64,000 nt of DNA from Klebsiella phage vB_KpnM_Tauntaun_ER47: sequence record PP738783.1; one strand, written 5' to 3'. This document shows, in pieces, positions 35,554 through 39,924 of this stretch (positions within the stretch are counted from its first letter, which is position 1; every line of letters starts with the position of its first letter). The translations under genes and the position numbers were made by a program. The notes beneath the pieces are model-generated. The model ran no database searches. It worked only from the letters and a program-made list of their open reading frames with translations, and was not told the origin of the DNA.

Positions 35554-36024
35554 TTAACCGTCGTAATCCCCGCCACAATTCACATCGCCTTCAATGAACA
35601 GTTCGCGGTTATCACGTAATAAATTATACTTTCTTTCGAGTTCAGGCCCGAACGCGTCGGCGTCTTCATACCAGCTATAATTGTATCTTCCGCATTCATC
35701 ATCATATTCTGGTTCATCACCGTGCTCGTTGAAGTGAACAATTTTAATATCGTCCATCCCCAGTTCTTTCAGCTTATCCCAGATATACGAAATCTCAACG
35801 CTATGGGAACCGAACGCTTCCAGTGAGATCGTACCGTCGCTATCGACTTGAGGAACACCCCACTTCGAACGAGTATCATCGGTGATCATATCTATTAATG
35901 ACTCAATATTATTCTCACCGTAGATATCAGCAACTTCCTTTTCTTTACCAGGGCGAACAAGTCCGATCCCGATAATAAAGCTACTGCTTGAGCTATTGCT
36001 CACAAACCCAGAACGAATTTTCAT
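35554..36024 (-). CDS. acidic Tyr/Trp-rich protein, MKIRSGFVSNSSSSSF family (paralog B)
   Basis: first 16 aa identical to the 39409-39924 product and about 85% nt identity over the first 50 nt. Confidence 0.5.
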   Translation of the reverse strand: MKIRSGFVSNSSSSSFIIGIGLVRPGKEKEVADIYGENNIESLIDMITDDTRSKWGVPQVDSDGTISLEAFGSHSVEISYIWDKLKELGMDDIKIVHFNEHGDEPEYDDECGRYNYSWYEDADAFGPELERKYNLLRDNRELFIEGDVNCGGDYDG

Positions 36025-36179
36025 CGCATCACCATATTACCAATCATGAATAGAGGGATTAGCGCGAAGACGATACCCCATAGAATGACCTTATCTTCAC
36101 GACGGTCACACCCATAATAGATAACACCTCCAGCGAAAATCAATACAACAACTGAAACGAACGCGAATAAATAAATCAT
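36021..36179 (-). CDS. small membrane protein (52 aa)
   Basis: MIYLFAFVSVVVLIFAGGVIYYG... two hydrophobic helices; ATGA-coupled at both ends; below the ORF-track cutoff. Confidence 0.3.
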   Translation of the reverse strand: MIYLFAFVSVVVLIFAGGVIYYGCDRREDKVILWGIVFALIPLFMIGNMVMR

Positions 36180-36826
36180 TTGCAGGTATCCATTCTCATA
36201 GAAACTTCTTTCAGGATCTTATTCAGATCGTGAAGCGCATCTTTTACGTTACCTTCGTTATAGGTAAGCATATCCTGGTACAGCCCTTTCAAGCAACGAT
36301 TGATTACATATGCTTTTTCAGAAGGTAACATTGTACCAGAGCGATTATAATCTCTGAAAATGTCCATCATCGTGCCGTTGTTACCAGGTAATGACGGGTT
36401 GAAGTTAACCATACCGGACATCAAACTATCAACATACACAACTGTTGTGTTATCAGAACGATACGCGCCACCAACTTTAAACCAGTTGCTGAACACATAC
36501 GGAGATTCCCGCACTTCGCTCAAATCGGTTCCGATTTCATCGATGTTTACACGAATGTTGTTAAAATACACCGATTCATCAATAGAACCATGACGCCATA
36601 AGATAGCACCATTGTTATTTTTGAATCCGACTACATCAACCTGCCAGCCGTTATCTGTTAACCGGACATCATCAACGACGATGAAATCAGGTAGCTGTGA
36701 ATGAAAGCCGATGTTTTCAGGACGGGAATTACGAAACCCATCACGATTGGAGAAATAAAGGATGTCGCCTTGATTCAGTTCGCATATATTCATAAGATTT
36801 TTAAAGTCCAATTCAAGTAATTCCAC
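36176..36826 (-). CDS. hypothetical protein
   Basis: 216 aa. Confidence 0.4.
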   Translation of the reverse strand: MELLELDFKNLMNICELNQGDILYFSNRDGFRNSRPENIGFHSQLPDFIVVDDVRLTDNGWQVDVVGFKNNNGAILWRHGSIDESVYFNNIRVNIDEIGTDLSEVRESPYVFSNWFKVGGAYRSDNTTVVYVDSLMSGMVNFNPSLPGNNGTMMDIFRDYNRSGTMLPSEKAYVINRCLKGLYQDMLTYNEGNVKDALHDLNKILKEVSMRMDTCK

Positions 36827-36864
36827 AAGTCACCTCAAAGCCCCCTTTCGGGGGCGAGATCTCA

Positions 36865-39081
36865 TTAGAGTTTAACTTCTTTTTCTTCCAGAACGATTGT
36901 GCAATCAAATTTCACATCTTTCCAGAATTCCGCTGCAACGATATCTGTTGCGGTAACGCTTACGCTGGTTTCTTCGAAATCCAGATCCGCAAACCATGCG
37001 TGTCCGACGACAATACCGTACATTACACGACTCAGGCGATTATTAAGGGCGCGAACCTCTTTAATAGTTTCCTTTGTCTGCTTATCAAGATACTCGATCA
37101 GGTCATTCTTGTCAAGCGCTTCGATCTCTTTAGATACGGTATCGTAAGCCCACAGAATGATCAGGTCGCCATTGTTGAGTTTCTTCTTACCTTCGGCGCG
37201 TTTTGCAACGGTAGCCGCAACAGCCGGAAGTGATGAAACGCCTTTGATTTTCACGTTCAGTTCTTTCGACATGTAAACATCAGTCGATTCTGTGCGCTCA
37301 ACCTTCGGAGAGAAGCCGTAATCACGGATCCCTTGCTCAGACAACCATTCACCAGCCGCCTCACCAAAGCGCTGTTTAAGCCCTTCTGCGTTGCGTAAAC
37401 CAATCGCGTTATCACGGAAGAACTTCATTACCTTCTGACGGCCTTTCAGGATTTCCAGACGGACGTTATCAGCAACAAATTCCTTACCAGAAATACCGCG
37501 AGTCATCGAACGGTTAACCAGAGGCAGAGAGGTAAAGTCAACCAGTACAGACATACGGTCTTCACCAATTTTAGCCAGCGGTTTGATAGTCAGACCAGAA
37601 GCACGTAAGTTTTTCAGAGTCGGGATATCGGTTTCCAGCGGAAGTACCTTAACGTTAACGATACCATCTTTAACAATGGTAAAGTTACGCACTTGTTTGG
37701 TTTCTACTTTTTCCGGCAATCCAAACTCTTTTTGTTTGCTTTCCGGAATGGTTACGTAACCTTGTAGATCCGTATTGATAGAAATGTTCGGACGGGAACT
37801 GTTACCAACCAGGTGTTTCACTGCAACTTTCGTTGTGGTTTGGGTAAATTCCGGTTTCCATACTTCATGCGCTACCAGTTGCGCCGCCAGTGCTTTACGT
37901 TCTTCCGGAGTAGAAGCGTTTGCAATCTGTTCTGACAGTTTATCCAGTGTATCATCATCTTTCTGGACAGTCTGACGGCCTGTACGATTGTACGCCCAGT
38001 GTTCAGAAGACAGGTCGATCACTGTGTCGGTTTCTGCCAGCAGTTCGAGAGCATCAACCAGAGTAAACGCGTTTTCATCAGGAACCATGTTGTAATCAAC
38101 ACCATCCATCAGACGTTTAGCCGGATCAACAACCGCTTCGGAGATCATATCTTTAGCGTTGGAATAATCCTGTTTGGTAAAGCAGTTATCGTATGCTTTA
38201 ATCAGACGCACATCACCCAGCTTTTTCAGAACTTTCCATGCCAGATCTGGATTCATGGTATGAAGCGCATGATACAGAACCACATACAGAACCTGTTCAC
38301 CTTCTGCTGTTGCCGGATCGAAGCCGTCAACGTCATTGATCGCGTTTTCACCCAGCGCCCAAATGTTTTTGATATGTTCCGGAACCAGAACAACACCATT
38401 TGCAGCATTCAGGACATACACACGGCCTTCATCCAGGTAGATCGCATGAGTTGCATCGCCAACTTTGACTTCAACACGTGCGGAGGTTTGCGCGGTAATG
38501 ATTTCATCAAATGCAGGTACATACGCATCAAACCCTTCAACGAATTTGTGTAATGCGTTGGTTGCTTCCGCCATTTTTTCCAGCAGAGGACGGTTTACAT
38601 AATAACCATATTCCAGGAAAGCAATGTTGTTAAACGTCAACGGCAGAGTAGAACACGCTTTCAGGATGTCATCAGTACGCCAGCAGTTATCATAACCATC
38701 AGTCAGGAAGATCAGACTGTTCAGATTGCCATTATCCGCTTGCAGATCGGTAGCGAGTTCAACCGCCAGTTGCAGAGGTTCAACGAAGCCAGTACATCCG
38801 GTCGGACGCAGATAACGATCGATAGCATCATTGATTTTGCTCAGGTCGGATACAGAGCTAACCTTTTCGCCCACGAATACAGAACCGAACTGACCACGGC
38901 TGGAGAAATACAGAATAGATACGGTATCATCCTGCTTAACCAGCGTTGCCAGGTTGTTTTTCAGGTGCTGACGAATGCGAGGGAGTTCGTTATACATCGA
39001 TCCGGATACGTCACAAACAAAAACGTGGTTAGTCGGGGTTGGTTTGGCTACGGCGTTTTTGAATTCAATGTTAGTGATCAT
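36865..39081 (-). CDS. von Willebrand factor A (MIDAS) domain protein, 738 aa
   Basis: N-terminal VFVCDVSGSM (DxSxS MIDAS) then LIFLTDG; large C-terminal region of unknown function. Confidence 0.6.
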   Translation of the reverse strand: MITNIEFKNAVAKPTPTNHVFVCDVSGSMYNELPRIRQHLKNNLATLVKQDDTVSILYFSSRGQFGSVFVGEKVSSVSDLSKINDAIDRYLRPTGCTGFVEPLQLAVELATDLQADNGNLNSLIFLTDGYDNCWRTDDILKACSTLPLTFNNIAFLEYGYYVNRPLLEKMAEATNALHKFVEGFDAYVPAFDEIITAQTSARVEVKVGDATHAIYLDEGRVYVLNAANGVVLVPEHIKNIWALGENAINDVDGFDPATAEGEQVLYVVLYHALHTMNPDLAWKVLKKLGDVRLIKAYDNCFTKQDYSNAKDMISEAVVDPAKRLMDGVDYNMVPDENAFTLVDALELLAETDTVIDLSSEHWAYNRTGRQTVQKDDDTLDKLSEQIANASTPEERKALAAQLVAHEVWKPEFTQTTTKVAVKHLVGNSSRPNISINTDLQGYVTIPESKQKEFGLPEKVETKQVRNFTIVKDGIVNVKVLPLETDIPTLKNLRASGLTIKPLAKIGEDRMSVLVDFTSLPLVNRSMTRGISGKEFVADNVRLEILKGRQKVMKFFRDNAIGLRNAEGLKQRFGEAAGEWLSEQGIRDYGFSPKVERTESTDVYMSKELNVKIKGVSSLPAVAATVAKRAEGKKKLNNGDLIILWAYDTVSKEIEALDKNDLIEYLDKQTKETIKEVRALNNRLSRVMYGIVVGHAWFADLDFEETSVSVTATDIVAAEFWKDVKFDCTIVLEEKEVKL

Positions 39082-39088
39082 AATTTTC

Positions 39089-39409
39089 TCATTTATAGGT
39101 AAATTTTATTAAAATTTCGTTTACTTTTTTGCTAATAGTATCTAATGCATCATCGCATCCAAACTTACTACTCAACAATGAAACAAAATCATCCATCGTT
39201 GTTGTTTGAGACTCGCCAACGTCAAAAGACAGAGCGTAGGCAACAGGATTTTTAATCCTTACGATTTGAATAGTATACTCATTCAGATCGAACCGTTCAA
39301 GATATTTTCGCAAAGAAAATAAATCAATCGGTACTGGTAGAGTTTGACTAAACGTTATTTCTTCCCCCAGTTGATAGGGGGGCATTTTTACACAGATTTC
39401 GTATTCCAT
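39089..39409 (-). CDS. hypothetical protein
   Basis: 106 aa. Confidence 0.4.
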   Translation of the reverse strand: MEYEICVKMPPYQLGEEITFSQTLPVPIDLFSLRKYLERFDLNEYTIQIVRIKNPVAYALSFDVGESQTTTMDDFVSLLSSKFGCDDALDTISKKVNEILIKFTYK

Positions 39410-39924
39410 CAGTGATGACTCTTCATAGTGTGTTCCAGATTACGGAAAATTTGCCCGTGTTCAAGCTGTGATTGGAATTCTCCGCATTCATCAGAGTAAG
39501 TAAATTCATAAATGAATACACCGTTCTGATTGCCAAATTTAGCGTTGTACTCTTCATACAACCACATCTTGATCAGAGCGTCTTTCTCTTCTTTTTCCAG
39601 ATCATACCAGTCACGCCCATCATAAGCAAGCGCAATTTGAGGATTAGACCGATATCGAGTTTCTGCGCTATCTTCGGTTTCCCATTCATAACGCTTATCA
39701 TCATAGTATGATTCGAAACCATCACCCATATGACCACCCAGGTCGCGGTGTACTTGCTGTACAACTTCTTCCGCTGTCGGGCAAGTCATCCAGCTATAAC
39801 CACAGTTAGGAACACAATCACCCATCATTTCGCGGAGATTGTTGATATCAGTCGGATCCTTCGGGAACCGTACAATAAAGCTACTTGATGAACTATTGCT
39901 CACAAAACCAGAACGGATTTTCAT
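39409..39924 (-). CDS. acidic Tyr/Trp-rich protein, MKIRSGFVSNSSSSSF family (paralog A)
   Basis: 171 aa; shares its N-terminus with 35554-36024. Confidence 0.5.
   Translation of the reverse strand: MKIRSGFVSNSSSSSFIVRFPKDPTDINNLREMMGDCVPNCGYSWMTCPTAEEVVQQVHRDLGGHMGDGFESYYDDKRYEWETEDSAETRYRSNPQIALAYDGRDWYDLEKEEKDALIKMWLYEEYNAKFGNQNGVFIYEFTYSDECGEFQSQLEHGQIFRNLEHTMKSHH

Follow-up and report, generated by a model that had tools for sequence, protein, structure and literature searches.

In a 64,000-nucleotide stretch of the genome of Klebsiella phage vB_KpnM_Tauntaun_ER47 (PP738783.1; the whole stretch is hereafter the window), two minus-strand genes, p1 (39409-39924; 171 amino acids, aa) and p6 (35554-36024; 156 aa), encode proteins that begin with the same peptide, MKIRSGFVSNSSSSSFI, and bracket a 738-aa protein with a von Willebrand factor A (vWA) domain. 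What is this shared N-terminus for? We propose that it is a portable recognition tag for a phage radical S-adenosylmethionine (SAM)/SPASM enzyme encoded at 59124-60269 on the minus strand of the window, with p1 and p6 as two members of a large and diversified set of clients, a reading to which we assign a probability of roughly 0.6. A family of such tags exists, is modular, and is tightly linked in genomes to this enzyme, which is a radical-SAM/SPASM homolog.

The first 17 residues of p1 and p6 are identical, one more than the 16 counted in a sequence-only reading of the locus, and are encoded by codons 1-17 of the two genes (39874-39924 in p1 and 35974-36024 in p6, both on the minus strand). 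The 5' ends are 87.5% identical over 48 nucleotides (nt) and 88% identical (45/51) over 51 nt, in keeping with the figure of about 85% over the first 50 nt given earlier. All six differences between the tag-coding segments are synonymous, including a serine codon switch between TCA and AGC, which suggests that selection has acted on the tag peptide rather than on the DNA. The synonymous-only differences and the invariance of the peptide across very divergent phages rule out recent gene conversion, or an element acting at the DNA or RNA level, as the source of the shared 5' ends. A signal peptide was likewise dropped as a reading of the tag, since inspection by eye revealed no hydrophobic core. 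The window contains two copies of the tag only, those of p1 and p6. Beyond it, the two proteins share no similarity detectable by BLASTP, and a profile-profile comparison of their families yielded an alignment limited to residues 1-41, bearing out the earlier statement that the bodies diverge completely; the bodies are also acidic, as described (isoelectric point, pI, 4.74 for p1 and 4.30 for p6). An identity of 17 residues between proteins that otherwise cannot be aligned is far beyond chance.

The tag, with the pattern MK.R.GFVSNSSSSSF at residue 1, heads a large uncharacterized protein family of large phages. Its first 16 residues are invariant in remote homologs of both p6 (down to 32% identity) and p1 (down to approximately 36% identity). 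An exhaustive profile search with the p6 family recovered 1019 cluster representatives at 50% identity (E <= 1e-3), nearly all of which are 140-170 aa long, carry the tag at their start, and end in G(A/G)(G/E)R(N/D)G (GAGRNG). The tag was present in all of the approximately 147 representatives inspected, in nearly all of them at residue 1. IMG/VR contains 487 exact VSNSSSSSF stretches, and on metagenomic phage contigs the tagged genes form tandem, co-directional arrays with 1-13 genes per locus. The largest array comprises 13 consecutive tagged genes on a 461-kb contig (L057, 11714-17439).

Information content falls from about 4.3 bits at the tag positions, where conservation is partly set by the search pattern (the alternatives that it allowed were hardly used), to about 0.5 bits from residue 19 on. 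Residues R4, G6, and F7 are invariant, and Ala, Gly, or Cys also occurs at positions 13 and 14. The 285 unique tagged open reading frames (ORFs) fall into 95 body clusters at the level of BLAST, with body similarity in no more than 24 of 565 pairs from the same locus. Body length ranges from 50 to 390 aa, the order of secondary-structure elements differs between bodies, and 90% of the 285 have a pI below 5.5. The p1-type body (...EHG.IFRN..H..SHH-COOH) forms the second largest cluster, with 30 ORFs at 29 loci, one per locus, and its family has a conserved C-terminal D/EH/H/SHH motif (alignment A2); the p6-type body (...G(A/G)G(R/Y)(N/D)G-COOH) is the fourth commonest type. Another type, with 23 ORFs in 19 loci, is zinc-ribbon-like and has Cys-x2-Cys-Gly right after the tag (e.g., SSSSSFVCDICGQEESGYDM), so placed that the cysteines adjoin the serine run (examples at L024 8406, L028 7592-8609, and L029 5404).

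AlphaFold2 (AF2) models of both proteins show bodies predicted to fold well behind a disordered N-terminus. The p6 model, built from a 136-sequence alignment, reached a mean predicted local distance difference test score (pLDDT) of 90.5 and a predicted template modeling score of 0.83, with residues 1-11 at low confidence, and the p1 model reached a pLDDT of 82, with residues 1-10 at a pLDDT of 38. In both models, the first beta-strand of the body comprises residues 12-23. Residues 1-10 are the most conserved part of p1 and p6 yet receive the lowest confidence; the pairing of invariance with a lack of structure suggests that this peptide acts through binding to a partner. For the bodies, fold searches returned no meaningful structural relative and Foldseek against BFVD returned nothing. 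The two families had no match in Pfam, NCBIfam, PADLOC, or sequence and profile searches of the PDB, and none of the 136 p6-family members had a Pfam domain. These searches, which could have exposed the shared N-terminus as the conserved fold start of a known enzyme family, revealed no such family. The comparison with DNA-mimic anti-restriction proteins drawn in the sequence-only reading agrees with the strong acidity of p1, p6, and the tagged bodies at large, but no fold related to a known DNA mimic was recovered, and DNA mimicry is left without support. Collectively, the sequences and the predicted models indicate that the shared N-terminus is a portable module rather than the start of a common fold. 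Its invariance on at least 95 body types and the lack of structure in residues 1-10 of the AF2 models place it in the category of processing or recognition tags.

Which partner might such a tag have? Clustering of all ORFs at tag-anchored loci yielded one recurrent non-tag family, a protein of approximately 350 aa with Pfam Radical_SAM and SPASM domains, encoded within 6 kb of the tag at 18 of 28 loci. The 381-aa product (from ATG) of 59124-60269 in the window matches these recurrent neighbors over its full length at 40-45% identity (tblastn E down to 6e-93) and scores 26.2 bits against the Pfam SPASM cutoff of 21.5. Because tagged proteins almost always adjoin the enzyme, the tag is probably the site of enzyme binding or modification.

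The same association is recovered when loci are anchored on the enzyme. IMG/VR yielded 163 enzyme relatives, from which the best 80 loci were kept, 73 of them outside the Slopekvirus lineage to which the window's phage belongs. Among these 73, 65 encode 1-13 tagged ORFs within 10 kb of the enzyme, counts that somewhat overstate independence because some loci are near-duplicates. All of the tagged ORFs at enzyme-anchored loci are on the strand of the enzyme and 167 of 194 are downstream of it. Moreover, 218 of the 487 IMG/VR tag matches fall in the 1.52 Mb around the best 80 enzyme loci. No other gene family recurs near the enzyme and tags in more than 8 of 63 loci, which argues against a protease, an exporter, or a second enzyme as partner. 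At one locus (L002, 6173-6619), a 148-aa multi-pass membrane protein is encoded between the enzyme and the first tagged gene.

Among cultured phages, Vibrio phage D479 (258 kb) is independent of the window's lineage and encodes the enzyme together with five tagged genes, all on the same strand. The enzyme and p6 were also detected in the same set of cultured phages (173 records each, with near-identical genus breakdown); this adds little independent weight since the set is essentially one lineage. More informative is a sister contig (L049), on which the enzyme is 67% identical to that of the window, with a p6-type gene lying upstream of it and, directly downstream, a gene of the p1 type (42% identity to p1). 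Representative genomes in GTDB contained 18 enzyme loci, mostly on contigs of metagenome-assembled genomes, with tagged genes in at least 12; the system is rare in cellular genomes. One enzyme, 92% identical to that of the window, is encoded on a 178-kb contig, as long as an entire phage genome, in the assembly of the flavobacterium Flagellimonas marina (L121, NZ_JBHSCL010000010.1); this contig is probably a contaminating Pseudotevenvirus/Karamvirus-like enterobacterial phage and not part of Flagellimonas marina.

The window enzyme contains the cysteine triad C68-x7-C76-x2-C79, followed by a C-terminal Cys-rich SPASM/twitch region; in an alignment of the family (A4), the three triad cysteines are invariant, as are C260, C285, C303, and C355. 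Triad spacing varies within this one orthologous family, with CX3CX2C in some members and CX6 to CX13 before CX2C in others, and the expansion is located right at the cluster-binding site. Homologs with the canonical CX3CX2C spacing pass Pfam Radical_SAM (PF04055), and of six homologs scored for SPASM, three were above the cutoff and three just below it. Matches to NCBIfam were sub-threshold only (tungsten-cofactor maturase, MftC, and twitch/SPASM models), those to the PDB were weak profile matches to BtrN and SkfB, and the window enzyme corresponds to phrog_7293, annotated as being of 'unknown function'. In some phages the enzyme gene is interrupted: on one contig (L035, 1872-4386), its frame breaks exactly at the third triad cysteine (CRF|CLPAGVPV...), in a sequence that resembles an intein N-terminus and has an HNH-like ORF after it, and the enzyme match is split in two pieces in Cronobacter phage leB (H194) and Citrobacter phage IME-CF2 (H172). 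The enzyme gene of Vibrio phage D479 has a homing endonuclease gene immediately next to it.

Sequence, predicted structure, and gene neighborhood lead us to infer that the tag is the substrate of the enzyme and which chemistry it undergoes, and that the tagged proteins act early, their bodies serving as effectors. In the mechanism that we envisage, a flexible N-terminal tail (approximately residues 1-11) would project from a folded small acidic domain and thread into the active site of the enzyme, which would cleave SAM reductively, abstract a hydrogen from a residue in the invariant segment G6-S15, and install a covalent modification. By precedent, the most plausible chemistries would be conversion of Ser to a formylglycine-type aldehyde (as by AtsB/anSME) or an intramolecular cross-link, for instance a Phe-x-Ser/Asn cyclophane; epimerization is a further candidate. 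The likeliest targets would be S9, N10, S11, and S12, which are invariant and lie where the flexible tail passes into the first strand, or else S15; positions 13 and 14 are less likely targets because Ala, Gly, or Cys is tolerated there. The fixation of the tag at residue 1, together with the invariant K2 and R4, suggests that recognition by the enzyme involves the free N-terminus. The modified tail would confer a property common to all clients, for instance a handle for reaction or binding or a protected N-terminus, and the variable bodies would supply different targets early in infection. By analogy, the tagged proteins resemble the host-takeover and anti-defense effectors of phages in being small, acidic, diverse, tandem-amplified, and early-type in location. 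Extended to large phages in general, the proposal is that they carry a dedicated radical-SAM/SPASM maturase that places one common modification, perhaps a formylglycine-type aldehyde or a strained cross-link, on the invariant 16-residue tail of small, folded, mostly acidic early proteins, to which we give about even odds.

The best-supported model, in which the enzyme docks at the tag and most likely modifies it, would make tag and enzyme a protein-level relative of two known kinds of maturation, that of ribosomally synthesized and post-translationally modified peptides (RiPPs) and that of sulfatases by AtsB/anSME. Like AtsB/anSME, the phage protein is a radical-SAM enzyme with a C-terminal SPASM domain that would act on an entire protein, not a small peptide, at a short conserved motif with serines close to its N-terminus, with neither a leader protease nor an exporter. 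However, the sulfatase motif (C/S)-x-(P/A)-x-R is absent from the tag, no anSME model reaches its threshold on the phage enzyme, and anSME serves one cellular enzyme family whereas the phage enzyme belongs to viruses and is accompanied by dozens of small bodies unrelated to one another. The maturases of RiPPs with tandem precursors (sactipeptides, ranthipeptides/SCIFF, streptide, triceptides of the XyeB/FxsB type, and darobactin DarE) likewise adjoin arrays of substrates that vary except for a single conserved recognition sequence, and the phage enzyme has a weak relationship to MftC, SkfB, and maturase models. In addition, F7-V8-S9 of the tag may resemble the aromatic-x-residue motif of three-residue cyclophanes. 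The phage system differs in that its conserved element is at residue 1 and only 16 aa long, its variable parts are folded domains of 50-390 aa rather than short cores, and it occurs in large phages, at loci where no RiPP recognition element (RRE), protease, or transporter was found.

A third comparison is with the glycyl-radical activases (PflA/PflB, NrdG/NrdD, and GrcA), in which a radical-SAM enzyme also acts at a Gly in an R..G(F/Y) context. The R4-x-G6-F7 of the tag is, however, one residue out of register relative to R-V-x-G-[FYW], the tag is N-terminal rather than a C-terminal radical domain, and the enzyme is of the SPASM type rather than the PflA type. We know of no described radical-SAM counterpart, viral or cellular, that places one common modification across a diversified set of effectors. 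A description of the tag or of the enzyme-client pairing was also not found in Pfam, NCBIfam, PHROGs, PADLOC, or the searchable literature, where absence from a text search is weak evidence.

Several observations weigh against reading the tag as a substrate of this enzyme. Covalent modification of the tag is a prediction, and the genomic linkage is equally compatible with a tag that docks the enzyme and stays unmodified. Many of the loci are related metagenomic contigs, some of them near-duplicates, such that the counts are not fully independent. At 8 of the 73 enzyme loci, no tag matching the strict regular expression was detected within 10 kb; a relaxed expression recovered variant tags (SSSTSF) at one of these eight (L051), and another variant (SSSMSF) at a GTDB locus (L123). 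The tag/enzyme loci yielded no leader-binding domain of the RRE type and neither a protease nor an exporter, in contrast to classical RiPP systems. In the window itself, the enzyme and its putative clients p1 and p6 are 19-24 kb apart, the clients having become separated from the enzyme in this lineage. Finally, the window enzyme falls below the Pfam Radical_SAM threshold, with its expanded CX7CX2C spacing; this spacing, a variant also present in several homologs, accounts for the domain not being reported, and assignment of the window enzyme to the radical-SAM family thus depends on its 40-45% sequence identity to homologs that do pass.

In the main alternative, the tag would recruit the enzyme but stay unmodified, with each variable body binding a different host or phage target and presenting it to the enzyme, or with the tagged proteins regulating the enzyme. 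It draws on the same linkage between tag and enzyme, a flexible tail is compatible with it, and many unrelated bodies around an enzyme that is the only recurrent non-tag gene conform to a layout of hub and adaptors. Known SPASM/twitch enzymes (anSME, AlbA, SkfB, MftC, and QhpD), however, act directly on the peptide or protein that they bind. In addition, approximately 14 of the 16 tag positions are near-invariant (in part enforced by the search) and 5-6 of them are serines, which is more than docking peptides usually need. We therefore regard recruitment alone as possible but unlikely, and favor the tag as a substrate.

It is improbable that the tag is instead a targeting or processing sequence of the kind found on T4 internal proteins, with the proteins being packaged into the capsid, processed, and injected as anti-defense effectors. 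The pattern is admittedly similar: unrelated small acidic proteins that begin alike and are encoded as tandem arrays in variable regions of large phages recall T4 IPI, IPII, and IPIII, which share an N-terminal peptide and are encoded in variable regions of T4-type phages. The tail of the tagged proteins is also predicted to be flexible, and an L-x-E is conserved at residues 31-33 of the p1 family. The T4 targeting peptide, however, is about 10 aa long and ends in an (L/I)xE site, whereas the tag has no acidic residue (no Glu) and no such prohead-protease site, and the p6 family has no conserved (L/I)xE site at all. Capsid-targeting sequences co-evolve with the scaffold of one lineage, yet the same invariant tag recurs on widely differing virus contigs, its conservation reaching well outside the T4-type phages. 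Its genomic linkage is with a radical-SAM enzyme, whereas head and protease genes show none. Of the earlier suggestion of a 'targeting or processing tag', the recognition or processing part stands, given the at least 95 unrelated bodies that carry it, and capsid targeting finds no support, given the missing Glu and the link to the enzyme; the tagged proteins may nonetheless be packaged once modified. No virion proteomics for KP15/Matisse-type (Slopekvirus) phages was found in the literature checked.

Strand and promoters bear on the same alternative. The tagged genes of the window are on the early-type strand, with no T4 late-promoter consensus (TATAAATA) near the p1-p6 cluster, although the scan was uninformative: the consensus occurs once in the 64-kb window (48402-48409, minus strand) against a chance expectation of 3.8, and is absent from the plus strand, which bears the baseplate and tail genes (~34 kb). 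Late promoters of this lineage may differ from the T4 consensus. A promoter scan also revealed no enrichment of sigma-70-like sites.

The sequence-only reading had joined p1, p6, and the genes between them into an accessory system. In one such system, the vWA protein, with its metal-ion-dependent adhesion site (MIDAS), would be the center and the tagged proteins its partners. All six minus-strand ORFs between 35554 and 39924 are present as described. Between p1 and p6 lie p2 (39089-39409; 106 aa; phrog_7677, of unknown function), the vWA protein (36865-39081), p4 (36176-36826; 216 aa from a GTG start), and p5 (36021-36179; a hydrophobic membrane protein of 52 aa), p2, p4, and p5 being specific to the lineage and p4 and p5 each matching a PHROG of unknown function. 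Public records give p4 a later start, which corresponds to 36793 in the window and to 205 aa. The junctions from p1 to p6 are -1, +7, +38, -4, and -4 nt, so that most pairs are placed for translational coupling, though not all of them as stated earlier. The vWA/MIDAS assignment was correct: Pfam VWA_2 and VWA score above threshold at residues 20-175, the DxSxS...T...D MIDAS is complete, and its residues (D24, S26, S28, T97, and D128) are invariant in 17 diverse homologs. Profile matches in the PDB were to the vWA domains of ITIH1 and alpha2delta, and the C-terminal approximately 560 aa had no match in sequence and profile searches. Scans of the six cluster proteins against Pfam, NCBIfam, and PADLOC gave the vWA domain as the only match.

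The tight, partly overlapping, co-directional arrangement of the six genes and their joint conservation in 173 related phages would fit a system centered on the vWA protein. The distribution of the vWA family argues otherwise. Its 503 phage records extend to Ackermannviridae (Vi01), Bacillus phage PBS1, and Rhizobium phages, and many of the 503 lack the enzyme or tag. Records of Ackermannviridae, PBS1, and Rhizobium phages are absent among the enzyme matches, no tagged gene was seen within 5 kb of the vWA gene in Vi01 or PBS1, and no counterpart of p2, p4, or p5 is next to it in Vi01, PBS1, or the Rhizobium phage. Conversely, none of the approximately 120 tag/enzyme loci outside the window's lineage encodes the vWA protein, p2, p4, or p5, and comparison of vWA and tag/enzyme loci gave no match to p2 outside that lineage. 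On the sister contig L049, moreover, the p1- and p6-type genes flank the enzyme instead. Since the distributions differ and the neighbors are absent elsewhere, the bracketing of the vWA gene by p1 and p6 appears to be a lineage-specific gene order rather than a system, and the vWA protein with p2, p4, and p5 is best read as an unrelated cassette between two clients. A vWA-centered system is hence quite improbable, and the accessory system proposed earlier is not supported.

The least probable alternative, that the shared N-terminus is the first strand and active-site loop of a common ancient enzyme fold with divergent bodies, or, in a related structural reading, part of a head-tail adaptor, is suggested by the first strand at residues 12-23 in both models, by the conserved extreme C-terminus of each family, and by a match of p6 to phrog_132 'head-tail adaptor' (E = 1.5e-9), but it conflicts with the lack of any sequence or fold match in the searches above, with the 95 body clusters of 50-390 aa and differing secondary-structure order, and with phrog_132 being matched by 1 of 136 family members. 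That member is p6 itself, and with no adaptor fold in the fold searches the 'head-tail adaptor' label is unsupported. Public records nevertheless give p6 this label (e.g., Klebsiella phage Roth22, annotated with pharokka, 6355-6825 of locus L001), and call the vWA protein a 'minor tail protein' (e.g., 7666-9882 of the same locus), in which searches recognize the N-terminal vWA domain only.

With respect to its setting, a 5-kb query around the cluster (35200-40200) matched T4-like Klebsiella phages of the KP15/Matisse (Slopekvirus) type at 99% identity. The six ORFs are in a leftward-transcribed block that starts right after the rightward baseplate genes, and GC skew switches sign at approximately 34 kb in the window. 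The same block contains a 303-aa ORF resembling C5-cytosine DNA methyltransferases (41195-42106, minus strand; motifs FPCQ and ENV), and further along it, nucleotidyltransferase and cytidyltransferase genes are annotated in related phages. An 'unknown DNA modification' is reported for KP15/KP27 (PMC5219037), to which the methyltransferase-like ORF and these transferase genes are possibly relevant.

Correcting the labels 'head-tail adaptor' and 'minor tail protein' removes two misleading entries from public annotation. Cultured representatives of the system include therapy-relevant T4-like phages of Klebsiella, Enterobacter, and Cronobacter as well as a Vibrio jumbo phage, and the system is directly testable with KP15, Matisse, and RB43-type phages and their hosts in culture. 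If the inference holds, large phages would possess a widespread viral system of post-translational modification for which we found no description. Such a system would extend the biology of radical-SAM/SPASM maturases from peptides and single enzymes to a multi-client viral system operating at the protein level, and the compact, genetically encoded pair of tag and enzyme could be of use in site-specific protein modification. For the small acidic early proteins in variable regions, which count among the 'dark matter' genes of phages, the tag would be a first functional handle, and for the viruses that encode them it would represent a universal post-translational handle for their effector proteins.

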